Of a stretch of 64,000 nt of DNA, positions 1,838 to 57,806 are shown in pieces. Under the pieces are notes generated by a model. That model was not told the DNA's origin and did not search any database. It saw only the letters and a list, made by a program, of their open reading frames with translations. Each line of letters starts with the position of its first letter. Positions within the stretch are counted from its first letter, which is position 1. The position numbers and the translations under genes are program-made. This stretch comes from Minisyncoccia bacterium (GTDB taxonomy: Bacteria > Patescibacteriota > Minisyncoccia > Phycocordibacterales > DATDWN01), in the NCBI GenBank assembly GCA_049297675.1, contig JBAQUS010000010.1, positions 6,781-70,780 on the forward strand. The letters are read 5' to 3'.

Positions 1838-3661
1838 ATGGATAACGATATAACATATTTTGCAGAAACTGATGCTAGAAATAAAAAAGTTAAATTTGGA
1901 ATAAAGGCCAAGGATAGATTAAAACATCTCTATGTTATTGGGAAAACAGGAATGGGAAAGTCTACCCTTCTTGAGAATATGGCCATTCAGGATATTCAAA
2001 GCGGAAACGGCTTGGCCGTTATTGATCCTCACGGAAGTATGGCCGAGAAGCTTTTGGATTATGTGCCAGAAAATAGAATAGACGATGTTTTGTATTTTGC
2101 TCCTTTTGATCTAGATTACCCAATTTCCTTTAACATTATGGAGGATGTTGGAGCTGACAAAAGGCACTTGGTAGTGGCGGGACTGATGGCCACATTTGAG
2201 AAGATTTGGGCCGATGCTTGGTCGGCAAGAATGGCATATATATTACAGAACACACTTTTAGCCCTCCTTGAATTTCCGGGAGCGACTCTTCTCGGTGTAA
2301 ACAGGATGTATACCGACAAGAATTTTCGAAATCAGGTAGTTGATAATATAAAGGATGTTGCTGTGCGCTCTTTTTGGGTTGATGAGTTTACAAAATATAC
2401 AGATAGATATACTCAGGAAGCGACGCCTGCAATACAGAACAAAATTGGTCAATTTGCTAGTAATCCTCTCATTAGAAACATTATCGGTCAGAGTAAATCA
2501 AGTTTTAATTTGAGAGACATAATGGATCAAAAAAAGATTCTTATAATGAATCTTTCAAAAGGTCTGGTCGGTGAGGGCAATGCCAAACTACTTGGCTCAA
2601 TGCTTATCACCAAAATTTACCTAGCTGCCATGAGTCGAGCTGACCTCAGTGCCAAAGAGATGATTTCAACTCCTAATTTTTATTTTTATGTTGATGAGTT
2701 TCAATCTTTCGCTAACAAATCATTTGCTGATATTTTATCTGAGGCCAGAAAATACAAACTCAATTTGACGATTGCTCACCAGTACATTGAGCAGATGGAA
2801 GAAGAGGTTCGGGATGCTGTTTTTGGAAACGTTGGAACAATGATTACTTTTAGAGTGGGAGCTTTTGATGCAGAAGTGTTAGAGAAAGAATTTTTCCCTA
2901 CATTTACTGCATCAGATTTGGTCAATCTTGGTTTTGCTCAAGTTTACTTGAAACTGATGATAGACGGAGTGTCATCTCAACCTTTTTCGGCTAGAACAAT
3001 TGCTCCAATACCTAAACCGGTAATTAGCTATAAAAATGCAGTAATAAAAAGTTCCAGAGATCAGTTCGGTCGTTCGAGAATAGATGTGGAGAAAGAAATA
3101 AATGAGTGGCATGGATCAAGTCCAGCAAGCACAAAAGAAGAGAAGCCTCAACAAAGAAGAGAATGGGATAGACCAAAGGAGTATCCAAAACCAAGTGATG
3201 GTGGAAGACCTAATCCACAGTTAGCTCAAGTTCTAACACAATTTACAAAACCTATTGAGCACAAAGAGAGCTTTCAAAAGCCAACAGAGGAGTTTAGAAA
3301 AAGAGAGACTTCTCCAAAACCAATTGCACCAGTGCATAACAATCCTAATCCAAACCAGACGGTTTCACTTTCAAATTTAAGTAGTATAAAAGACAATAAA
3401 AAACCGACAATGGAAGGCATATCCAGTTTAAAAGAAGCACTTTCTAAAGTAATAAATAAACCCAGAATTGAGCCCGAGACAAAACCAATAGTAAAACTTG
3501 AGGCAAAACCACTAGAGAGAAAAATTACCACAGAGAACAATAAAGATAATAGTAAAGATATGAAAGATCAGCAGAGAGAGAATGTTAAAAAAGAAACGCC
3601 TCCAAAAGAGGTCCCAGAAGAAGTTCTTAGGAAAATATTAAGCATGGATGGAAACAAATAG
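1838..3661 (+). CDS. FtsK/HerA-superfamily P-loop NTPase (TraD/VirD4 coupling-protein-like or DUF87/DUF853-like) with a ~200-aa Lys/Glu/Pro-rich low-complexity C-terminal tail
   Basis: Walker A (VIGKTGMGKST) is followed by VIDPHG, and a Walker B-like FYVDEFQSF is followed by IAHQ. There is no N-terminal TM segment. The C-terminus (about aa 400-607) is K/E/P-rich and predicted disordered. Confidence 0.5.
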   Translation: MDNDITYFAETDARNKKVKFGIKAKDRLKHLYVIGKTGMGKSTLLENMAIQDIQSGNGLAVIDPHGSMAEKLLDYVPENRIDDVLYFAPFDLDYPISFNIMEDVGADKRHLVVAGLMATFEKIWADAWSARMAYILQNTLLALLEFPGATLLGVNRMYTDKNFRNQVVDNIKDVAVRSFWVDEFTKYTDRYTQEATPAIQNKIGQFASNPLIRNIIGQSKSSFNLRDIMDQKKILIMNLSKGLVGEGNAKLLGSMLITKIYLAAMSRADLSAKEMISTPNFYFYVDEFQSFANKSFADILSEARKYKLNLTIAHQYIEQMEEEVRDAVFGNVGTMITFRVGAFDAEVLEKEFFPTFTASDLVNLGFAQVYLKLMIDGVSSQPFSARTIAPIPKPVISYKNAVIKSSRDQFGRSRIDVEKEINEWHGSSPASTKEEKPQQRREWDRPKEYPKPSDGGRPNPQLAQVLTQFTKPIEHKESFQKPTEEFRKRETSPKPIAPVHNNPNPNQTVSLSNLSSIKDNKKPTMEGISSLKEALSKVINKPRIEPETKPIVKLEAKPLERKITTENNKDNSKDMKDQQRENVKKETPPKEVPEEVLRKILSMDGNK

Positions 3662-4859
3662 AAATATGATGTACGAAGATCGAAGCACTAAAAGGAGAAT
3701 ATTAATTTTTTCGACAGCCTATTATCCTTTCATGGCAGGGGCCGAGATAGCAATAAAGGAAATAACAAATAGATTGTCGGAAGATTTTGAATTTGACTTG
3801 ATTACCGCAAAACTAGATAAAAATTTAAAAAGTTTTGAGAAAATTGGGGTAGTAAATGTCTATAGGTTGGGTTCTGGCAAGCCTATATTTGATAAATTTT
3901 TTTTACCTTTTCTTGGTGCAATTCGGGCATATAAACTTAGCAGGCAAAATAACTATTTTTGTCTTTGGGCGGTTATGATTACTTTTGCAAGTGGAGCTGG
4001 ATTTCTCTTAAATATTCTTAGATTCTTAACTGGAAAAAATAGAATCCCTATGGTTCTTTCACTTCAAGAAGGGGATTCAGAAAGCCACTTGAAATACAGA
4101 TGGGCAGGCTTAATCTCATTGTCGTGGCGCTTGGCTCTTAGTCAGACGGATATATTGACCGGATTAAGTAATTTTTTATTGAATAGAGCAAAAAAATATG
4201 GTTATAAAGGTGAGGCTGTTCTAGTTCCAAACGGCGTGGATTTATCAATTTTTTTAAATGAAGTTAGTCTGGATGATAAAAATTCACTTAAAGTAAAATT
4301 AGGTAAAAAAGATGAAGAAGTTTTTCTGGTCACAACAAGCAGACTTAACCACAAAAATGCAGTTGATGATATTATAAGAAGTTTAGTAAGTCTTCCGGAA
4401 AATATAACCTTGATTGTTATTGGAAAAGGTGAAGAAGGCCAAAGGCTTCAAAAACTGGCAGATGATTTGAAGGTAGCGCATAGGGTGAAATTTTTAGGTT
4501 TTTTGGATTATGAGGAATTACCAAAACATCTTTCAGTTTGTGATATTTTTATAAGACCCTCTCGTTCGGAAGGATTCGGAAATTCTTTCATAGAGGCGAT
4601 GGCAGTAGGGCTACCGGTTATAGGGACACCAGTTGGCGGTATACCTGATTTTCTTGACGATAAAGAAACTGGAGTTTTTTGCTCACCTGACAATCCGCAG
4701 AGCATTGCTATGGCAGTAAATTTAATTCTTTCGGACAGAGAGCTCCGAGAAAAAATAATTTATAACGCAAAAGACAGGGTTGTTGCCATGTATGGTTGGG
4801 ATCACATATCTCAAAAAATGAAAGGTCTTGCATTTGATAGATTGCTAAAATATGTATAG
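3648..4859 (+). CDS. Glycosyltransferase family 1 (GT4-type, GT-B fold)
   Basis: Carries the C-terminal GT1 signature EGFGNSFIEAMAVGLPVIGTPVGGIPDFL. The start overlaps the upstream gene by 14 nt, consistent with an operon. Confidence 0.8.
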   Translation: METNRNMMYEDRSTKRRILIFSTAYYPFMAGAEIAIKEITNRLSEDFEFDLITAKLDKNLKSFEKIGVVNVYRLGSGKPIFDKFFLPFLGAIRAYKLSRQNNYFCLWAVMITFASGAGFLLNILRFLTGKNRIPMVLSLQEGDSESHLKYRWAGLISLSWRLALSQTDILTGLSNFLLNRAKKYGYKGEAVLVPNGVDLSIFLNEVSLDDKNSLKVKLGKKDEEVFLVTTSRLNHKNAVDDIIRSLVSLPENITLIVIGKGEEGQRLQKLADDLKVAHRVKFLGFLDYEELPKHLSVCDIFIRPSRSEGFGNSFIEAMAVGLPVIGTPVGGIPDFLDDKETGVFCSPDNPQSIAMAVNLILSDRELREKIIYNAKDRVVAMYGWDHISQKMKGLAFDRLLKYV

Positions 4860-4876
4860 TATAGACGCCTTATGAG

Positions 4877-4991
4877 TCCCGTTAGAAACCGCGGTCACGA
4901 AGTAGTATGATTAGTTATAAAAAGTATATGTTAGTCGAATATAAATTAACAAAATTACAGATTGCGATGATCGCGACCTGTTTCTAACGGG
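4877..4991. repeat. MITE-like palindromic element, family 1 copy a (terminal IR CCCGTTAGAAAC / GTTTCTAACGGG)
   Basis: Reads tcccgttagaaaccgcggtcacgaagt ... ttaacaaaattacagattgcgatgatcgcgacctgtttctaacggga, with perfect 12-bp terminal inverted repeats. It is near-identical at both ends to the copy at 13555-13670. The right terminus abuts the ATG of the downstream GT gene (ctaacggg-ATG). Confidence 0.65.
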
Positions 4992-5999
4992 ATGAGAATT
5001 CTAATTACAACAGGTATATATCCACCAAAGGTAGGTGGTCCATCACAGTATGCCAAAAACTTATTTGAAGTCTGGCAAAAGGCGGGTCATGAAGTTTTAG
5101 TTCGAACTTACACTATTGAGAATAGTATACCTACTGGAATAAGACACATTTGGTTTTTTTTGAAAATTATTCCTGCAGTGTTAAAATCGGATTTTGTCCT
5201 AAGCCTTGATACTTATAGTGTTGGGTTTCCCTCTGTCTTTGCCTCAAAAATTTTTGGGAAAAAAGTAATGATTCGTACAGGAGGAGATTTTCTCTGGGAG
5301 AGCTATGTAGAAAGAACAAGAGAAAGAGTATTGTTTAGAAATTTCTACGAAGATAAAGCTGTCAAACTGAATCTTAAAGAAAAAGTTATTTTTTCTATCA
5401 CCAAGTGGACTTTGAAAAATGCTAATAAACTCATTTTTTCGACAAATTGGCAGAGGGACATTTTCGTTAAAGCTTACCAGTTGGATATAGAAAAAACATC
5501 TATTATAGAAAATTATTATGGCCAGAAAGAATCCAGTTTGGGTCCAAATTCTAAAGATTTTATAGCTTCGACTAGAAATTTGTATTGGAAAAATCTCGAT
5601 GTATTGAAAAAGATCTTCGTGAGAATTGTTCGCAAGAACTCGCAGGTAAAGCTTTACACTTTGAATACCGATTATGATTCATTTATGGAAAGGATGAGGG
5701 GTAGTTTTGCTGTTGTTCTTGTCTCACTTGGGGACATAAGTCCAAACATGATTCTCGATGCCATAAGACTAAATAAGCCTTTTATTTGCACAAAAGAAGT
5801 TGGGATTTTTGATAGAATAAAAGATGCCGGTATTTTTGTGGATCCACTGAATGAAAATGAAATTGAGGAGGCTGTTTTAAAACTACTCAATCCTGAGGAA
5901 TATTCAAAAGCTAAAGAGAAGGTCAAAAATTTTAATTTTACACATACATGGGAAGAGATTTGTAATGAATTCATAACAATTTATAATTCAATAGAATAA
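4992..5999 (+). CDS. Glycosyltransferase (GT-B, GT4-like N-terminal domain)
   Basis: The N-terminus MRILITTGIYPPKVGGPSQYAKNL is the typical GT4 N-terminal motif. The C-terminal half is only weakly GT1-like. Confidence 0.55.
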   Translation: MRILITTGIYPPKVGGPSQYAKNLFEVWQKAGHEVLVRTYTIENSIPTGIRHIWFFLKIIPAVLKSDFVLSLDTYSVGFPSVFASKIFGKKVMIRTGGDFLWESYVERTRERVLFRNFYEDKAVKLNLKEKVIFSITKWTLKNANKLIFSTNWQRDIFVKAYQLDIEKTSIIENYYGQKESSLGPNSKDFIASTRNLYWKNLDVLKKIFVRIVRKNSQVKLYTLNTDYDSFMERMRGSFAVVLVSLGDISPNMILDAIRLNKPFICTKEVGIFDRIKDAGIFVDPLNENEIEEAVLKLLNPEEYSKAKEKVKNFNFTHTWEEICNEFITIYNSIE

Positions 6000-7590: not shown

Positions 7591-7622
7591 TTCCATAATT
7601 TTGACAGAAATGAGTGTGTATA

Positions 7623-7641
7623 ATGGTACCTGACACCATTT
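7623..7641 (+). repeat. REP-like palindromic sequence (AATGGTACCTGACACCAtt), copy 1
   Basis: One of four copies of the 17-18-bp motif AATGGTACCTGACACCA. It contains the TGGT...ACCA stem and a KpnI-type GGTACC core. It sits at the left edge of the RAYT-containing cassette. Confidence 0.6.
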
Positions 7642-8699: not shown

Positions 8700-8740
8700 A
8701 AATTATTTTATCAATCCACAGTCTCCATGAAATTGGGAAA

Positions 8741-8758
8741 TTGGTGTCAGGTACCATT
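8741..8758 (-). repeat. REP-like palindromic sequence, copy 2 (inverted orientation)
   Basis: ttggtgtcaggtaccatt is the reverse complement of aatggtacctgacaccaa. It lies immediately upstream of the RAYT gene and is inverted relative to copy 3. Confidence 0.6.
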
Positions 8759-8786
8759 TTTTGTAATTACATGCTAGAGTCACTAA

Positions 8787-9449
8787 ATGTCACGAGTACC
8801 TAGAGTAGATATAGGAGATGAGATTTACCATGTTCTCAACAGAAGTAATGGTCGTGTAAAAATATTCAATAATGACAAAGACTACAAAAACTTTGTAGAT
8901 TTACTGATCGAGACAAAAGAGAAGTTTGATATGAGGATTCTTGCTTACTGTATAATGCCGAATCATTGGCATCTAGTTCTGTATCCAAAGAAAGACGGAG
9001 ATCTTTCAAAATTCATGCAATGGTTATCATTAACTCATACACAAAGATATCATGTTAAAACCGAGACTGTTGGATTTGGTCACCTGTACCAAGGAAGGTA
9101 TAAATCATTTTTAGTATCAAGAGACAACTATCTTCTCCAGGTTATTAGATATGTCGAACAAAATCCACTAAGGGCAAAAATTGTTAAAAGAGCTGAGGAT
9201 TGGAAGTGGGGAAGTGGGTTTAATAGATTTAATCCTTCAGAAAAAAACTTTGTTTCTGAATGTCCGATTGATCTACCAAACGATTATAGACAATGGTTAA
9301 ATGAGGTTCACGAAAAAGATGAATTAGAGAACATTAGACTGTCAGTAGAAAAGAGTAAACCATTTGGTACAATTAGTTGGGTAGATAAAATGGTCGAAAC
9401 TTTTAAATTGGGTTTAACCACAAGACTAAGAGGAAGACCCACGAAATAA
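8787..9449 (+). CDS. REP-associated tyrosine transposase (RAYT; IS200/IS605 TnpA-like HUH Y1 transposase)
   Basis: Has the HUH motif MPNHWHLVLYP and the C-terminal catalytic Tyr helix LLQVIRYVEQNPLRAKIV. It is about 220 aa, typical of the Y1_Tnp family. It is flanked by inverted REP copies at 8741-8758 and 9449-9467. Confidence 0.8.
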   Translation: MSRVPRVDIGDEIYHVLNRSNGRVKIFNNDKDYKNFVDLLIETKEKFDMRILAYCIMPNHWHLVLYPKKDGDLSKFMQWLSLTHTQRYHVKTETVGFGHLYQGRYKSFLVSRDNYLLQVIRYVEQNPLRAKIVKRAEDWKWGSGFNRFNPSEKNFVSECPIDLPNDYRQWLNEVHEKDELENIRLSVEKSKPFGTISWVDKMVETFKLGLTTRLRGRPTK

Positions 9450-9467
9450 TGGTACCTGACACCATTT
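9449..9467 (+). repeat. REP-like palindromic sequence, copy 3
   Basis: aatggtacctgacaccatt overlaps the RAYT stop codon. It is followed by the tandem tacattcatt tacattta. Confidence 0.6.
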
Positions 9468-10723: not shown

Positions 10724-10748
10724 GAATGATTACTTTTGTACAAAAAAT

Positions 10749-10766
10749 AATGGTACCTGACACCAA
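10749..10766 (+). repeat. REP-like palindromic sequence, copy 4
   Basis: aatggtacctgacaccaa, preceded by the same ataatggtacc context as copy 3. It marks the right boundary of the cassette. Confidence 0.6.
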
Positions 10767-10772
10767 ATAGTA

Positions 10773-13545: not shown

Positions 13546-13554
13546 AACTATTTA

Positions 13555-13670
13555 TCCCGTCAGAAACCGCGGTCACGAAGTGATATAATCAGTCAAGTAA
13601 GATTTATATTATATTAATTTACATTAACAAAATTACAGATCGTGATGATCGCGACCTGTTTCTAACGGGA
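13555..13670. repeat. MITE-like palindromic element, family 1 copy b
   Basis: Reads tcccgtcagaaaccgcggtcacgaagt ... ttaacaaaattacagatcgtgatgatcgcgacctgtttctaacggga. The left 28 nt and right about 45 nt are near-identical to the copy at 4877-4991. Again the right end abuts the ATG of the downstream gene. Confidence 0.65.
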
Positions 13671-14650
13671 TGAAATACAAAATAACAGTTATTACCCCAA
13701 AGAATAAAAACGATTATTTGACCGATACAGTTATTGACGGTCTTCTGGCTCTGAGAGAGGAGAATTACGATCTAGAGTTTTACATGCCGGATTCTTATCC
13801 AACAGACTTGGAAGTTTTGAGTTTTCGGAAAAGCGAGGGGGATTTTTTTAACTACGCTATTGAAGCGGACATAATTTTATTTGCTTGGGGAAAAGACAAT
13901 ACGAACTATGAACTTGCAGAAAAAATAAATAGATACGAGAGAACTATTTTTATAGATGGATCTGAAATAGGCAGAAATGGAAGATATGATGAGAAAATAC
14001 AAAAATCAATAATTGAAGGAACATATGAGGGTAGGAGCAAAATTGATTTAGAGATGGAGAAAAAATGTACCCAATACTTAAGAAGAGAAAAACCATACTT
14101 AAGAAACATCATTCCTTTTCCTTTTGGAATAGAAAGAAAATATACTAAGCATTACTCAGAAAATACGAAAAAAGATATAGATTTTTTCTGTGTATTTGGA
14201 CAGGACGAATATCCTATAATGCGTAGGGAAGTCAGAGGGACACTAATAGAGTTTTGCAAGAAAAATAATTTTAAATGTTTTACTGAAAAGACTGATAAGG
14301 ATAATTTTTATAGAATGCTCTCTCGATCACGGGTTGGGATTTCTGTCGGTGGGGGTGGTTTTGATACGGCACGCTTCTGGGAGATATTGGGGAACAATTG
14401 CATTCTTTTGACTGAAACGATTGATATCTACGAGCCAAATTCCAATAGACTTAAATATGAGAGAATCAGGCAGTTTAAGGATTTGTCAGAATTTAAGCTT
14501 AAACTTGAGAAGCTTGGGGAGTACTTAAAATCAGAATATGACCAAGATTCACTAAGCTCAGAATATCAAAAAATTATAGTAGATCACTCATCCAAATCAA
14601 GAGTTTTAGAGATAATAAAGAAAGCCAAAGAAAAGGGTATAATTGATTAA
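13670..14650 (+). CDS. CgeB-like glycosyltransferase (Glyco_trans_1_2 / DUF3880-type)
   Basis: The C-terminal RFWEILGNNCILLTE matches the CgeB/Glyco_trans_1_2 motif (R.FE.la.g.lllt). The N-terminal region is not otherwise recognisable. Confidence 0.4.
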   Translation: MKYKITVITPKNKNDYLTDTVIDGLLALREENYDLEFYMPDSYPTDLEVLSFRKSEGDFFNYAIEADIILFAWGKDNTNYELAEKINRYERTIFIDGSEIGRNGRYDEKIQKSIIEGTYEGRSKIDLEMEKKCTQYLRREKPYLRNIIPFPFGIERKYTKHYSENTKKDIDFFCVFGQDEYPIMRREVRGTLIEFCKKNNFKCFTEKTDKDNFYRMLSRSRVGISVGGGGFDTARFWEILGNNCILLTETIDIYEPNSNRLKYERIRQFKDLSEFKLKLEKLGEYLKSEYDQDSLSSEYQKIIVDHSSKSRVLEIIKKAKEKGIID

Positions 14651-24230: not shown

Positions 24231-25712
24231 ATGAAAAAAATAACTAATGTATTTATGTCGATCATTTTGTCTGTTTTGGTGGCAATTCCATTCAATGTTT
24301 TTGCCTTTACTTCTGAGTGTACTGGTGGAACTATTACTAATGTCGGAGCAAATACAGTTCACACTTTTACATCGAGCGGAACTTTTGAATGTTCTAGTGC
24401 AGGAACAGGAAATGTAGATTATTTGGTTGTTGCAGGCGGTGGTGGAGGTGGTGGAGCAAACAGTGCTGGTGGTGGCGGTGCTGGTGGTGTGAGGATGGGT
24501 ACTTCACTCTCATTCTCGGGCAGTTCATCTGTAACAGTTGGTTCTGGAGGTACAGGTGGGGCTGACACTGGGGTAACTGGATCGAATGGTTCTGACTCGG
24601 TGTGGAATAGTATAATCTCAATTGGTGGCAGTGGAGGTGGTGGCAATACTGCCCCCTCAAACGCTGGGACTAATGGTGGTTCAGGCGGTGGAAATGCTGG
24701 ATTTGGTACTGGACTTGCTGGATCGGGAATAGTTGGTCAAGGTAATGATGGGGGTGTTGGTGCAGATAATCCTTTTCCTTCTGGTGGGGGTGGTGGAGCA
24801 GGTTCAACTGGACAAGCTGGGACGGGTTTTCAATCAGGGTCTGGAGGAGCTGGCATAGTTAGTTCAATTTCTGGTTCTGCTATTTACTATGGAGGCGGAG
24901 GTGGTGGAGGCTCTAGCTCACAAGGATCATTATATGGACTCGGTGGTATAGGTGGTGGTGGAAATGGAGGAGAATTGGGGAATCCAACGTTAGGTGTTGC
25001 CAATACTGGAGGGGGAGGTGGTGGTTCGGGTAGTGCTAACACTGTTGGAGCGTCAGGCGGTTCGGGTATTGTAATACTGAGTTATGTAACCCCGGTCTAT
25101 CTTCCACCAATAACTGGAACTGGAATAAATAATAGATTAGCAAAATTTTCATCAGCCACCACAATAACTAACTCCTTACTTTCCGATGATGGACTAAACA
25201 TATCTCTTACCTCTGGTAACTTATTTATCTCGAACGGTTCTTTATTTTCACAATTTATTAGTTTATTAGCTGACGGTTTGGGTTTAGATACTGATACTCC
25301 CAGACTTCTCTCTATTGGCTCTACAACCGCAACTTCAATAAATATTGGTAGGGCAAATGTTACAACTACAATATTTGGTACAACAAAAATATCAAATATT
25401 GGTACTGTCTCAAATTGTGTTTCAACAATCACTCCTGCTGTATGTGGTTCTGCTCCATCTGGAAGTGTAGCAATGTCAACTGGAGGTAGTACTTTAATAG
25501 TGAATACAACAGCAGTGACATCAGATAGTCAGATATTTGTAATAGAAGATGCATCACTTGGTGCAAGACTAGGTATTACTTGTAGTGGTGCAGGGGCAAA
25601 TAGAAGTTTTAGTATTAGTGCTAGAACGGCTAATACTAGTTACACTATTAAATCTAGTGGTAATATAACTGGTGCTAACAAAGCTTGTTTGAGTTATTTT
25701 ATAGTGAACTAA
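24231..25712 (+). CDS. Secreted glycine-rich domain protein (Gly_rich-like) with conserved C-terminal Ser/Thr-rich domain; paralog A
   Basis: A signal peptide (MKKITNVFMSIILSVLVAIPFNVFA) is followed by VDYLVVAGGGGGGG and long GGxGG tracts, then GSGIVILSY. The C-terminal roughly 190 aa are about 75-80% identical to the paralog at 52750-54213. Both end in CLSYFIVN. Confidence 0.75.
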   Translation: MKKITNVFMSIILSVLVAIPFNVFAFTSECTGGTITNVGANTVHTFTSSGTFECSSAGTGNVDYLVVAGGGGGGGANSAGGGGAGGVRMGTSLSFSGSSSVTVGSGGTGGADTGVTGSNGSDSVWNSIISIGGSGGGGNTAPSNAGTNGGSGGGNAGFGTGLAGSGIVGQGNDGGVGADNPFPSGGGGGAGSTGQAGTGFQSGSGGAGIVSSISGSAIYYGGGGGGGSSSQGSLYGLGGIGGGGNGGELGNPTLGVANTGGGGGGSGSANTVGASGGSGIVILSYVTPVYLPPITGTGINNRLAKFSSATTITNSLLSDDGLNISLTSGNLFISNGSLFSQFISLLADGLGLDTDTPRLLSIGSTTATSINIGRANVTTTIFGTTKISNIGTVSNCVSTITPAVCGSAPSGSVAMSTGGSTLIVNTTAVTSDSQIFVIEDASLGARLGITCSGAGANRSFSISARTANTSYTIKSSGNITGANKACLSYFIVN

Positions 25713-43052: not shown

Positions 43053-43063
43053 AAGATTGCAAA

Positions 43064-43199
43064 ATTCAAAACTCGACGAAAACACACGTTTTCTGGCGTA
43101 TCTCGGAGAGCGTGAAGCTCGAGAGCTAAGGAAAATTTTTAGCATAAAATTATTCCGGCGCCAGAAAATATGTGTTGAGTAAGAGTTTTGTATTTAGCG
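43064..43199. repeat. MITE-like palindromic element, family 2 copy A
   Basis: Reads aaaactcgacgaaaacacacgttttctggcgtatctcggagagcgtgaagctcgagagctaaggaaaattt...attattccggcgccagaaaatatgtgttgagtaagagttttgta. The internal IR is acacgttttctggcg / cgccagaaaatatgtgt. It is near-identical to 57611-57780 apart from a 34-bp insertion in that copy. Confidence 0.65.
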
Positions 43200-43207
43200 A
43201 CTATCGA

Positions 43208-52749: not shown

Positions 52750-54213
52750 ATGAAAAAAATAACCAGCTTATTAACATCATTATTTTTATCAATCTTACTT
52801 CTTTTCCCAATAAATAGTGCAAATGCATTTATCTCTGATTGTAGCGGGGGTAGCGTAACTCATGCTGGAGGAAAAACTATACATACTTTTAATTCAAGCG
52901 ATATATTAGATTGTACTGGAACAAGTGGTGGGGCAGTTGATTATCTAATTGTTGGAGGGGGTGGGGGAGGATCTTATCAAGATAGTGGTGCCGGCGGAGG
53001 TGCCGGCGGAGTATTGGTGGGTAATGATTACGTATTAAATGCACAATCTTATTCAGTTGTTGTGGGTGGTGGGGGTGCTATATTTTCAAAAGGAAACGAC
53101 TCTGTCTTTGATGGAATGACTGCTTACGGAGGGGGTACTCCAGTTACAGGTGGTACTGGCGACGCTATTGGTGGTTCTGGAGCTGGTGGGGGTGGCGGTG
53201 ATATTCCTGGTGCAGGAATATCTGGTCAGGGACATTCAGGTGGTTATGGACACACTGGTAGTGGCGGTGCGTGTTCTGGTGATCCCTATTCTACTGGTGG
53301 AGGTGGTGGGGCAAGTTCGATTGGGGTTGCAGGGACATCTTCTGGTTCAGGTAATGGTGGCGATGGTATAATGAGTTCAATATCTGGATCAAATTCATAT
53401 TATGGCGGAGGAGGTGGCGGAGGAGCTGAAATTTTTAGGCAATGTAGCGGGGGAAATGGGACAGGTGGTTTGGGTGGTGGCGGTAATGGTGGAACTGCTC
53501 CAAATGGTGACACAGGTTCGACTGCAGGAAGCGTAAATACAGGTGGAGGTGGTGGGAATTTTCGTTCAGGAGGTTCAGGTGTAGTAATAATAAGTTATCC
53601 TTCACTTCCAACAATAATAGGCTTGGGTGTAACAAATAGATTAGCAAAGTTCTCAACGACTAATACTATAGCTAGTTCTCTCTTCTCTGATGATGGATTA
53701 AACATCACTCTAACTTCTGGAAATTTATTTATCTCAGGAGGATCATTATTTACACAATTTATTAATATACTAGCAGATGGTCTAGGTTTAGATACAAGTA
53801 CAGCAGGACTTCTTTCCATCGGCTCTACTACTGCGACTTCAATTAATATAGGCAGATCAGGTGTAACCACAACGATACTTGGGAAGACAAAATTATCAAA
53901 TATTGGCACAATCTCAAATTGTAACTCCGTAGCTTCTCCAGCGGTATGTGGATCTGCACCGTCAGGTAGTGTTACAATGTCTAAAGGTGGCAGTACTTTA
54001 ATAGTGAATACAACATCTGTAACTCCTGATAGCCAGATATTTATCATTGAAGACTCATCACTTGGTGTAAGATTGGGAATTACCTGTAACACCGCTACAA
54101 ATCGTACTTATACAATAAGTGCAAGAGTACCTAGTACAAGCTTTACAATAAAATCAAGTAACAATGTGAATGGTGCAAACAATGCATGTCTAAGTTACTT
54201 TATTGTGAATTAA
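52750..54213 (+). CDS. Secreted glycine-rich domain protein (Gly_rich-like) with conserved C-terminal Ser/Thr-rich domain; paralog B
   Basis: A signal peptide (MKKITSLLTSLFLSILLLFPINSANA) is followed by VDYLIVGGGGGGS, GGxGG tracts and GSGVVIISY. The C-terminal domain is shared with the paralog at 24231..25712 and ends CLSYFIVN. Confidence 0.75.
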   Translation: MKKITSLLTSLFLSILLLFPINSANAFISDCSGGSVTHAGGKTIHTFNSSDILDCTGTSGGAVDYLIVGGGGGGSYQDSGAGGGAGGVLVGNDYVLNAQSYSVVVGGGGAIFSKGNDSVFDGMTAYGGGTPVTGGTGDAIGGSGAGGGGGDIPGAGISGQGHSGGYGHTGSGGACSGDPYSTGGGGGASSIGVAGTSSGSGNGGDGIMSSISGSNSYYGGGGGGGAEIFRQCSGGNGTGGLGGGGNGGTAPNGDTGSTAGSVNTGGGGGNFRSGGSGVVIISYPSLPTIIGLGVTNRLAKFSTTNTIASSLFSDDGLNITLTSGNLFISGGSLFTQFINILADGLGLDTSTAGLLSIGSTTATSINIGRSGVTTTILGKTKLSNIGTISNCNSVASPAVCGSAPSGSVTMSKGGSTLIVNTTSVTPDSQIFIIEDSSLGVRLGITCNTATNRTYTISARVPSTSFTIKSSNNVNGANNACLSYFIVN

Positions 54214-56190: not shown

Positions 56191-56309
56191 TCCCGTTAGA
56201 AATCACTCGGTTATATTTAGAGAAAAAATGTATATTTAAAAAATCAGTGACTTTATATATATTATTCACCTAAACTACGGAAACAATAGGTTTCCTATCT
56301 CTAACGGGA
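56191..56309. repeat. MITE-like palindromic element, family 1 copy c (diverged interior)
   Basis: Has the terminal IRs tcccgttagaaatc and gatctctaacggga, matching the termini of the copies at 4877 and 13555. The interior is unrelated. The right terminus encodes the last codons and the stop (…LSR*) of the minus-strand Wzx gene. Confidence 0.55.
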
Positions 56310-57569
56310 TAGATCCTCCTTGTGTGTCGCGAAGAAGTAGTAGTTTACTAAAAGCATGATGAGCCAAGAGATGCCGTTTTCTATGACTGCACCTTTTAGT
56401 CCGAAATTGTAAATAAGCACAAAAGTTAGGGCAATAGTTATCAGGTTGCTAATTGTAGTTAGTTTGTACATTGTCTTTGCGTCTTTCTTTATCTGGAAAT
56501 AGATGCCAAAGAGTGATATGCCAGGAATAGCTATGAGTCCGAGCATGTAGATCTGTGAGTAAATAACTGCCTCGGTGTATTTGGGAAAGAAAAGCTCAAA
56601 GACAAATGGAGCTAAGACAATGTACACGGCAACAATGACAATTGTTATTAATGTAAGTTGCCATGTTTTCTTCATGATGCTACTTCGGAGGTTCGCTTCA
56701 TCCAACACAGCATATTTTGGAAGAGCAATGTTAAAGAGATTTTTATAGCTACCTTTTATTTGTTCAGGTATTGCTTGTGAAAAGGCATATATTGCCAAGT
56801 TAGCCGCACCAAGATAATGAAAGACTAAAATTTTGTCTAGCTGGTTTGCTAAACTGTTAAAGAAATTCATAAAGCTGACATGTTTGCCGTAAGAAAGGAA
56901 AGAATCATCTGTTTCCGTGTTGGGACGATATTTTGAGATTACATGAAAATAAGACCATGTGGCTGATCCCGCACTCAAAACAAAATATACTGCAACTAGA
57001 GATAAGACACTCTCAGAGAAAAGGGCTATAGCGATTATCCCCATGTTTAGAAGAAGTTGAGAAAAAATCCAGTAAACTGTGCTCAGCTTAAAATTTTTCT
57101 TTCCTGAAAAATATGTGCCGTATAATCCATATGAGTTTATAATCGGTAAGCAAACTGAAGCTATGGCAAAAGAAAATCCAAGAACTTTGTTTCCATTTAG
57201 AAGATAGTAGATAGACATACTTAAACCTACTAAAACCATAATAAAGCTCCATTTAAATGATAGAGAAACGGTTTTTCTAAGCATTCCTTCTTTTCCCTTA
57301 GCAATTGCTTGAGTTAATACGTTCGGCATTCCCGTTAAGGAAAGTGTTCCGAGGATGCCAATTGCTGAGAGTATAAATTTATACTGACCGTAAAAATCTT
57401 TTGAAACAAAGTTTGCAAAAAAGACAGACAGTCCGAATGCCATTACCACGGCTGAAATTTGCCCTACAGTCATCCAGAAACCACTTTTCGCAACATAAGC
57501 CATGTCGGTTTCGAAATAGTTTCCTAGCCAGTTTATGGCGTAGAGCCTCTTATCTTTGAGCTTTTGCAT
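56301..57569 (-). CDS. Wzx-like oligosaccharide/polysaccharide flippase (MOP superfamily, Polysacc_synt)
   Basis: 422 aa with about 12 TM helices. The N-terminal KSGFWMTVGQISAVVMAFGLSVFFANFVSKDFYGQYKFILSAIGILG is typical of Wzx. Confidence 0.65.
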   Translation of the reverse strand: MQKLKDKRLYAINWLGNYFETDMAYVAKSGFWMTVGQISAVVMAFGLSVFFANFVSKDFYGQYKFILSAIGILGTLSLTGMPNVLTQAIAKGKEGMLRKTVSLSFKWSFIMVLVGLSMSIYYLLNGNKVLGFSFAIASVCLPIINSYGLYGTYFSGKKNFKLSTVYWIFSQLLLNMGIIAIALFSESVLSLVAVYFVLSAGSATWSYFHVISKYRPNTETDDSFLSYGKHVSFMNFFNSLANQLDKILVFHYLGAANLAIYAFSQAIPEQIKGSYKNLFNIALPKYAVLDEANLRSSIMKKTWQLTLITIVIVAVYIVLAPFVFELFFPKYTEAVIYSQIYMLGLIAIPGISLFGIYFQIKKDAKTMYKLTTISNLITIALTFVLIYNFGLKGAVIENGISWLIMLLVNYYFFATHKEDLSR

Positions 57570-57610
57570 GGCGTCATATTACTTTATTTTTCATCTATTT
57601 GCCAACGCGA

Positions 57611-57780
57611 ATTATAAAACTCGACGAAAATACATGTTTTCTGGCGTATCTCGGAGAGCGTGAAGCTCAAGAGTTAAGGAAAATTTTCAGCCCGCCCGTA
57701 CCCGAACGGTACGTTCGGGCGGGCAGAAAATTATTCCGGCGCCAGAAAATATGTGTTGAGTAAGAGTTTTGTAGTTCGCG
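57611..57780. repeat. MITE-like palindromic element, family 2 copy B, carrying a 34-bp G+C-rich perfect-palindrome insertion
   Basis: The copy is co-linear with 43064-43199. An extra gcccgcccgtacccgaacggtacgttcgggcgggc lies at about 57690-57724. Its nested perfect stems are gcccgcccg/cgggcgggc and cccgaacg/cgttcggg with loop gta. The G+C content there is strikingly above the local level. Confidence 0.65.
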
Positions 57781-57806
57781 ATTTACTAGCTTGTGGGAAT
57801 ACCATT

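Follow-up and report, generated by a model that had tools for sequence, protein, structure and literature searches.

Start-codon-supplying palindromic elements in a Minisyncoccia genome as probable miniature derivatives of a small GIY-YIG nuclease element of Patescibacteria

Several short bacterial elements of about 100-150 bp, namely the Correia/CREE elements of Neisseria, the RPEs of Rickettsia and the MIRUs of Mycobacterium, carry inverted repeats, are flanked by a short duplication, occur in many copies and form hairpins in mRNA. The MIRUs hold small open reading frames (ORFs) that reach at either end into the stop or start codons of the neighboring genes, and the RPEs insert without destroying reading frames. 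Three elements that are alike in these respects, here named copies a, b and c, were analyzed in a stretch of 64,000 nucleotides from a Minisyncoccia bacterium (contig JBAQUS010000010.1, positions 6,781 to 70,780), which is called the window below. Two of them take part in the start codon of the gene behind them, and the third contains the stop codon of a neighboring gene. Probably, copies a, b and c are non-autonomous deletion derivatives, that is, MITEs (transposable elements of miniature size with inverted repeats), of a tiny cut-and-paste-type element that is common in Patescibacteria and encodes a single GIY-YIG nuclease.

All three repeats were confirmed in the sequence where the original prediction had placed them. 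Copy a (4877..4992; plus strand, as for all features below unless noted) reads T-CCCGTTAGAAAC...GTTTCTAACGGG-A; its 13-bp terminal inverted repeats are perfect, and it is flanked by the target-site duplication TGAG on the left (4873..4876) and on the right (4993..4996). Together with A4872, the left duplication gives the old start codon ATG 4872-4874; on the other side A4992, the terminal base of the element, is the A of the host ATG, and the TG of the right duplication completes the regenerated start at 4992-4994. The host gene (4992..5999) encodes a GT4-like glycosyltransferase whose N-terminus, MRILITTG, is conserved in the orthologues. Copy b (13555..13670) belongs to the subfamily of copy a, with one mismatch in the left repeat (CCCGTCAG), and its terminal base, A13670, is likewise the A of the host ATG; its right duplication is TGAA (13671-13674), and the left one has decayed to TTTA (13551-13554). 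The start of the host gene of copy b (13670..14650) was confirmed by orthologues beginning with MKYKI(A/T)VITPKNK. When Pfam was run on 10 flanking ORFs and one further ORF, no match of its own was found for this ORF; some of its homologues carry PF13524, and two close ones are named glycosyltransferase by their sources. Copy c (56191..56309) is an older, degenerate element between convergent genes, with the left repeat CCCGTTAGAAAT and the right repeat ATCTCTAACGGG, one mismatch between the two, and no intact target-site duplication. The TAG stop codon (56301..56303, minus strand) of a Wzx-like flippase ORF (56301..57569) lies inside its right repeat, so that the repeat encodes the end L-S-R-stop of Wzx, as had been claimed.

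The copies measure 115-119 nt, have no coding capacity and number three in the 64 kb. Copies a and b share 82% identity over 119 nt (repeat family D4), and copy c has only the ends in common with them, which also agrees with the earlier description. Twelve occurrences of CCCGTTAGAAAC with at most two mismatches were counted in the window against 3.3 expected, a number reached in none of 100 shuffles, and the six best matches formed three inverted pairs with a spacing of 90-93 nt. According to the original prediction, the terminal GGGATG provides the ATG of the downstream gene; this holds for copies a and b, but only the final A is derived from the element, the TG coming from the duplication. 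Both ATGs are true N-termini by the agreement of the orthologues, and neither is preceded by a Shine-Dalgarno sequence, as predicted, though most genes of the window are also without one.

When one genome per species was scanned with the pattern CCCGTYAGAAAY-N75-105-RTYTCTAACGGG, the same ends were found in at least 118 loci beyond the window, mostly of Patescibacteria, where they bounded elements of 45-130 nt; the family is thus not limited to the three copies. The Patescibacteria with the family, among the matches listed, were Saccharibacteria, Nomura-, Kaiser-, Doudna- and Berkelbacteria and Kazan, and the few matches outside this group came from Planctomycetota, Omnitrophota, Desulfobacterota, Nitrospirota and Elusimicrobiota. 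The element consensus is Y-CCCGTTAGAAAY...RTTTCTAACGGG-R with a 13-bp terminal inverted repeat. Inverted repeats had been predicted correctly, with a length of 12 bp that had to be revised to 13 bp, because the base just outside CCCG/CGGG was complementary in 99% of 123 copies; this sets the element limits at 4877-4992, 13555-13670 and 56191-56309. The terminal pairs were T..A (70), C..G (53), G..C (2) and T..G (1). As shown by a comparison of six bases on each side of the 123 copies, the flanking direct repeat is limited to four positions (match 0.85, 0.76, 0.77 and 0.86, against 0.52 and 0.45 outside them). Of 126 copies, 82 had a perfect 4-nt target-site duplication, which was TGAA for the most part, with TGAG, TGGA, TGCG, TAAA and TCAA occurring as well. 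The interiors are unrelated between subfamilies, yet both ends keep perfect repeats. The view of the repeats as a MITE-like mobile family is therefore upheld by the target-site duplications, by hundreds of copies in other genomes and by the empty orthologous sites described below.

Some family members of 45-60 nt, such as those at L083 6125-6230, L104 833-881 and L067 1345-1404 (fetched loci are given L numbers), comprise little beyond the two repeats; some stand in tandem and some have perfect duplications. No match was obtained in viral contigs by a pattern scan of IMG/VR, and on this ground a phage or viral origin was dropped. Rfam returned nothing relevant at the gathering threshold for the whole window or at E <= 10 around copy a, and no tRNAs were found in the window.

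Two loci (L106 and L048) each have a repeat pair, with a spacing of about 278 nt, around a small ORF that shows GIY-YIG motifs; here, as in L126, L129, L132, L215 and L216, a single GIY-YIG ORF lies between the repeats and shares 4 nt with the host gene. The complete element measures 275-280 bp, is bounded by a 4-bp target-site duplication and contains one gene, which encodes a GIY-YIG nuclease of 86-95 amino acid residues; its ends are 13-bp repeats of the form Y-CCCGTTAGA(A/G)AY...RT(T/C)TCTAACGGG-R. The DNA layout, as read in L126, L129, L132, L215 and L216, is ATGAA / T-CCC GTT AGA GAT ... CTA TCT CTA ACG GG-A / TGA A, where the slashes mark the element limits. The start codon of the nuclease is the old ATG of the host in the left duplication copy, the left repeat encodes P-V-R-D/N, the right repeat encodes S-L-T-G, and the stop codon is the TGA of the right-hand duplication, which shares bases with the regenerated ATG of the host (ATGA). 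A minority class of the nucleases stops at a TAA inside the right repeat (...G-A-S-Y-L-stop).

This layout recurred widely. A search with the nuclease protein matched 2293 clusters; among the closest 120 of them, 71 begin with M-x-P-V-R-(D/N), with x being N in 62, and 108 end in ...TG, typically ...F-L-S-L-T-G. A metagenome scan yielded 583 coding relatives in 600 stretches, and of the best 80 metagenome loci 75 had a repeat pair 240-330 nt apart (mode 275-278). For the 72 evaluable pairs, the terminal base pair was complementary in all 72, a perfect duplication was present in 36 (TGAA in 29 of these), the ATG or GTG was rebuilt in 54, and a host ORF of at least 60 codons followed in 47. The products of the host genes are, among others, a transaldolase, a MacB/FtsX-type permease, a class II tRNA synthetase, a cupredoxin-like protein and a small membrane protein, and elements 91-95% identical to each other occur between unrelated flanks. 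At repeat positions 1-12 of the complete elements, 33 symmetric double changes (for example CCTG..CAGG, CACG..CGTG and TTAAAG..CTTTAA) were observed against 60 one-sided ones, where about 1-2 symmetric changes were expected by chance. Such symmetric changes would fit a recognition of the paired repeats as a structure, and lineage effects could also give them. A different small GIY-YIG ORF was noted in L001 (~4330-4850), without 13-bp repeats and between two copies of one tRNA-like 5' sequence (GGGCCCATAGCTCATCCGGTAGA...); possibly a nuclease gene has been inserted here, either within a tRNA gene or next to one.

The nuclease of the complete element matched Pfam PF01541 (E = 1e-16), and ten residues (Y12, Y14, G27, R33, R35, H39, N40, E59, E71 and N85), the catalytic-type ones among them, were invariant in 24 sequences. 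By sequence, its closest relatives in the PDB were the UPF0213 protein BH0048 (1zg2, 1.4e-8) and Slx1 (0.007). When the AlphaFold model (predicted local distance difference test score, pLDDT, 83) was searched with Foldseek, 1zg2 and the Slx1 chains ranked 1-9, with I-TevI at 16 and UvrC at 26. The nuclease is a member of the YhbQ/Slx1 branch of GIY-YIG proteins, not of the I-TevI/UvrC branch. In a 2006 survey of the GIY-YIG superfamily, the bacterial Slx1-like group was regarded as vertically inherited repair proteins, and all selfish members were derived from the other (I-TevI/UvrC) branch (PMC1564403).

The gene-less copies are tied to the complete element by their ends. The right-end consensus of many MITEs, YCCT-R-TYTCTAACGGG, corresponds to the last codons of the nuclease gene, and this nuclease-C-terminal end faces the host gene in 26 copies and away from it in 4, the majority orientation being the one that gives nuclease gene and host gene the same direction. 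In L215 and L216, the repeats around the GIY-YIG ORF (T-CCCGTTAGAAAT...ATTTCTAACGGG-A) are exactly the AGAAAT-type repeat of the MITEs. Copy c still has 21 nt left over from the nuclease gene of the parent (56289..56309; GGTTTCCTATCTCTAACGGGA, G-F-L-S-L-T-G), from its 3' end; complete elements such as L126 have a matching 3' end, and copies a and b retain CCTGTTTCTAACGGGATGA (..L-F-L-T-G-stop). At the other end of copy a, a relic upstream ORF (4872..4910; MSPVRNRGHEVV-stop) runs from the old start codon through the left repeat, and MSPVRNRGHEVV corresponds to the N-terminus M-x-P-V-R-N/D of the parent nuclease. Read from the old ATG, a relic ORF remains open across the entire element in 18 of 54 copies, compared with 7.0 +/- 2.4 in shuffles; these ORFs end at a TAA 7 nt before the new ATG (13), in an ATGA overlap (4) or in frame (1).

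The placement of the elements was evaluated to the exact nucleotide. Seventy of the 123 copies end, on either side, on the first base of an ATG or GTG that opens an ORF of at least 60 codons, the codon being rebuilt from the terminal purine and the TG of the duplication. For T/A-type copies with a perfect TGAA duplication, 26 of the 27 evaluable ones lay exactly on a gene start; from the ATGAA sites in the same loci (245 start-like, 345 non-coding and 1830 intragenic), at most 41.5% were expected there on the assumption that sequence alone matters and that intragenic insertions are purged (P = 2e-9). Other targets are ATGA stop/start junctions, in which the TGA of the upstream gene lies in the left duplication (14 T/A-type cases), and the 3' ends of genes form a minor third context, with about 20 long ORFs stopping at the repeat-internal TAG as the Wzx ORF does in copy c. 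The supply of start and stop codons is thus a general property of the family and not a chance of the three copies. A G+C-rich C/G-type subfamily (L002, L062, L076, L078, L089, L112, L114 and L116), found in Desulfobacterota and Syntrophorhabdus-like genomes, has TTTA/TAAA duplications and does not lie at gene starts, which means that start-codon placement is not universal in the family.

Upstream of the old ATG, -10-like hexamers are most frequent at 6-8 nt (18 of 55), and only 4 of 55 copies have a Shine-Dalgarno-like motif; many insertion targets therefore look like leaderless genes. Most genes of the window are without a Shine-Dalgarno motif and have TATAAT-like boxes next to the ATG. The ORF starts at 1838, 12478, 14654 and 19876 may serve as examples of the missing motif, and several window genes have the TATAAT-like box 6-12 nt before the ATG, a pattern which suggests widespread leaderless or near-leaderless expression in the source organism. 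Before copy a, a promoter-like site matching the consensus (TTGATA-17-TAGTAT, 4834..4862) ends 9 nt before the old ATG, and in the L124 orthologue TACAAT lies equally far from the ATG. The distance between old and new ATG showed no preference for multiples of 3, with 1 of 54 copies reading through in frame, and an in-frame N-terminal extension of host proteins was dropped as an explanation on these grounds.

The orthologous loci were compared for the presence of the element, with syntenic orthologues at 65-77% protein identity. Orthologues of the copy a host gene (66-77% identical; synteny GT4 - gene - GT4 - GtrA; L121, L123 and L124) have no element, start with ATGAGAAT... or ATGAAAAT... and lie 0-5 nt after the upstream gene or overlap it. 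Those of the copy b host gene (65-68% identical; synteny GT - gene - methyltransferase; L133 and L134) also have none, start with ATGAAATAC... and are overlapped by the upstream gene (ATGA). According to these empty sites, copies a and b are insertions into A/TGAG/A and A/TGAA/A at conserved N-termini, and the sequence before the two genes is not a conserved 5' untranslated region (UTR). Directly upstream of the glycosyltransferase cluster, the window contains a type IV secretion system coupling-protein-like ORF (1838..3661; TrwB/TraG domains), a neighbor that is also conserved in the relative L125.

Taken together, the following course of events is proposed. The complete element would insert into an A/TGAA-type sequence at the very start of a host gene, either of a leaderless gene or at an ATGA junction of an operon. 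The left duplication would leave the old host ATG in place, from which the nuclease (M-N-P-V-R-D/N) would be read through the promoter and initiation site of the host, as the layout of the sequence suggests. The right duplication would give the nuclease its stop codon TGA, and the terminal A or G of the element, with the following TG, would give the host its new ATG or GTG. As TGA and ATG share the right duplication, nuclease and host gene overlap as ATGA, the classical arrangement for termination-reinitiation, and the host gene would probably be translated in this way. With the start codon rebuilt, an insertion leaves the host ORF intact. In the MITEs, the nuclease gene would have been lost and the ends kept, so that they would still supply a start codon (copies a and b) or an in-frame TAG stop (copy c). 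Codon supply is a built-in feature of the selfish element, since the parent needs the host ATG and the duplicated TGA for its nuclease and rebuilds the host start so that its insertion is tolerated. The nuclease itself would be the mobility enzyme and would probably recognize the paired repeats as a structure. That the complete 275-280-bp units form an unrecognized class of autonomous DNA transposons, moved by their sole Slx1/YhbQ-like nuclease and having the window copies as their MITEs, we hold to be an even matter. To our knowledge, the GIY-YIG class is not used by any known insertion-sequence family. The element was not found described in the searchable literature, which left most subscription journals and ISfinder out of reach, and a 2024 census of MITEs makes no mention of these taxa or of start codons.

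Several points weigh against the proposed explanation. No nuclease-encoding copy lies within the 64-kb window, copies b and c are without an intact duplication, and, apart from the ends, nothing in the interiors of copies a and b was detectably similar to the nuclease gene. In copy a the upstream ORF comes to a stop after 12 codons, and in copy b there is no such ORF, so the reinitiation route does not apply to these two copies as they stand. The pattern used for the MITE sample demanded nearly perfect repeats and thereby favored intact copies, and the start-codon bias may arise in part from the loss of insertions elsewhere rather than from targeting. Moreover, a GIY-YIG enzyme alone cannot explain the joining of strands, for which host ligation or repair, or an unseen transposase acting in trans, may be responsible.

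This last point leads to the alternative that survives best, although we consider it unlikely: the repeats could be ordinary MITEs of a DDE insertion sequence (IS1380/piggyBac-like), with the GIY-YIG gene as a passenger and the transposase encoded elsewhere. Inverted repeats combined with a duplication of fixed length are a hallmark of DDE transposition, strand joining is not known from hydrolytic GIY-YIG nucleases, there is a loose resemblance of CCCGTTAGAAAT to the repeat of piggyBac (CCCTAGAAAGATA), and most of the duplications follow the pattern TNNA. Against it, no longer transposase-bearing element with these ends was found in 0.93 Mb of loci, and the element has no room for another gene. 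The nuclease ORF is built into both repeats, and in the majority of hundreds of copies the duplication provides its start and stop, which is unlike a passenger. A conventional autonomous insertion sequence was sought in all fetched loci as repeat pairs 140-7000 nt apart with a matching duplication, and this candidate was rejected: the long pairs in L076, L086 and L098 were two separate small elements sharing a common duplication, and not transposase-bearing units.

A second alternative, to which only a slight probability is given, is that of a free-standing homing endonuclease copied by repair into empty start-codon sites, with the gene-less copies as its decayed remnants. GIY-YIG enzymes are indeed classical homing endonucleases, each element sits at a precise and recurrent type of site, and copies b and c look decayed. 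However, homing copies a gene between homologous alleles without target-site duplication, whereas here unrelated hosts (transaldolase, MacB/FtsX-type permease, tRNA synthetase and glycosyltransferases) have only about 5 nt in common, and a 4-nt duplication is present at each. Perfect repeats are retained at both ends by MITE subfamilies whose interiors are unrelated, and the nuclease falls in the Slx1/YhbQ branch and not in the I-TevI/UvrC branch behind known homing enzymes (PMC1564403).

A regulatory function had also been proposed in the original prediction, which expected an RNA hairpin at the start codon and a translational cis-regulator or mobile promoter cassette. Folding of each element predicted stable stems, closed by the element ends, of -33.7, -31.2 and -27.2 kcal/mol for copies a, b and c (z = -4.5, -4.6 and -3.9), in agreement with the expected hairpin. 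In the predicted read-through transcript of copies a and b, a stem of -37 kcal/mol takes in the A and U of the AUG, which makes a negative or modulatory effect on translation plausible; on this folding model, the hairpin of copies a and b would lower or modulate the translation of their host genes. A -10-like hexamer, TATGAT, was matched inside copy a (4906..4911), and the equivalent position of copy b reads TGaTATAAT (13581-13589); these putative internal boxes could yield a shorter, less structured leader. Inspection of the repeat itself showed no -10-like hexamer so spaced from the start codon that it could serve as an outward promoter. Mobility, as part of this proposal, stood; a dedicated regulator or promoter was not supported, as the interiors are unrelated, so that no shared regulatory RNA is evident, and the codon supply is explained by the selfish element. 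We give next to no credence to a device of the host for cis-regulation, be it a structured RNA in the 5' UTR, an attenuator, or a promoter of polysaccharide genes that can be inverted or carried along. In its favor are the stable hairpin predicted at the AUG (between -33 and -37 kcal/mol, with z near -4.5), the gene-proximal end with its terminator-like stem and the T-run behind it, the internal -10-like box conserved between copies a and b, and the position of two of the three copies before glycosyltransferase genes. Against it, there is no Rfam family match and no conserved core but only conserved ends, family interiors are unrelated in sizes from 45 to 130 nt, host genes across the family are of every functional kind, close orthologues manage without the element, the 26:4 orientation bias argues against frequent inversion, and the terminator-like stem is explained as the C-terminal codons of the nuclease.

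If the derivation from a complete GIY-YIG element and the autonomy of that element are true, these would be the smallest autonomous transposable elements known, with a minimum of about 280 bp, and the first shown to target start codons, borrowing the host promoter, the host start and, through the duplication, a stop codon. The Slx1-like GIY-YIG nucleases would then join the short list of transposition enzyme classes, and handing back a rebuilt start codon would be a new strategy of harmlessness for a parasite in a gene-dense, streamlined genome. Thousands of small proteins annotated in Patescibacteria as "GIY-YIG nuclease family protein" would be mobile elements, their M-N-P-V-R-D N-termini and ...LTG C-termini being encoded by the repeats, and an annotation rule for recognizing palindromic inserts of about 115 nt before genes would follow. 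For the window itself, two conserved envelope-polysaccharide genes would have gained a structured leader of 120 nt, with their translation perhaps damped.

Other repeats were also observed in the window. A second repeat, ATAATGGTACCTGACACCATTT, with a small internal hairpin, is located in four consecutive intergenic gaps (7620-7641, 8739-8762 in inverted orientation, 9446-9467 and 10747-10768), and two inverted copies of it flank an ORF for a 220-amino-acid Y1_Tnp (IS200-like) protein (8787..9449), a REP/RAYT layout inside the polysaccharide cluster. An intergenic repeat of 140-175 nt is present at 43059-43200 and 57607-57781 (83-95% identical; no Rfam match); the copy at 57607-57781 carries an extra G+C-rich perfect palindrome of 33 nt (~57690-57722; GCCCGCCCG...CGGGCGGGC), which looks like a separate tiny palindromic insertion. 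Two paralogous genes of the same cluster, 24231..25712 and 52750..54213 (repeats D1/D2, D5 and D9), lie 28.5 kb apart, are 74-80% identical over about 480 nt and contain glycine-rich internal repeats of the GGTGG type.

Compared with known systems, the family is alike to integron attC sites in forming imperfect palindromes of 60-140 nt between genes with GTTAG/CTAAC motifs. Unlike attC, with R'' (RYYYAAC) at the 5' end and R' (GTTRRRY) at the 3' end, the present element has GTTAG at its 5' end and CTAAC at its 3' end on either strand; with the order of the core motifs reversed on both strands and the three copies isolated rather than in an array, attC was rejected. REP/REPIN sequences are likewise short palindromic intergenic repeats of about 100 nt, but REPINs are paired hairpin-forming REPs without target duplication, whereas the ends of the present family are non-palindromic and a 4-nt duplication is made. 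Membership in a REPIN/RAYT system was ruled out by this duplication and by the Y1_Tnp gene of the window being flanked by the different repeat ATAATGGTACCTGACACCATTT. With piggyBac/IS1380 the family shares a 13-bp repeat beginning with CCC and a 4-bp duplication of the T..A type; it differs in the TGAA-type target (against TTAA) and in its length of 0.28 kb (against 1.5-2.5 kb), and no DDE transposase was found.

The homing endonucleases I-TevI and T4 Seg resemble the complete element in being selfish, in having a GIY-YIG nuclease as the sole gene and in preserving the function of the host gene. These enzymes have extra DNA-binding domains, belong to the UvrC-like branch, are without inverted repeats or duplication and move between alleles, whereas the present nuclease is a bare domain of 86 amino acid residues of the Slx1/YhbQ branch. 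Slx1 and the UPF0213 proteins (YhbQ and BH0048), minimal GIY-YIG domains, are closest to it in sequence and fold. Slx1 cuts branched or junction DNA, which by analogy would fit paired inverted repeats as the substrate of the nuclease; unlike the present nuclease, the Slx1/UPF0213 proteins use start and stop codons of their own and are not flanked by repeats. From the CREE, RPE and MIRU elements, finally, the family differs in three ways: it is placed to the exact nucleotide, with its terminal base forming part of the start codon; its parent is a 280-bp GIY-YIG unit and not a DDE insertion sequence; and it spans many classes of Patescibacteria as well as several other phyla.

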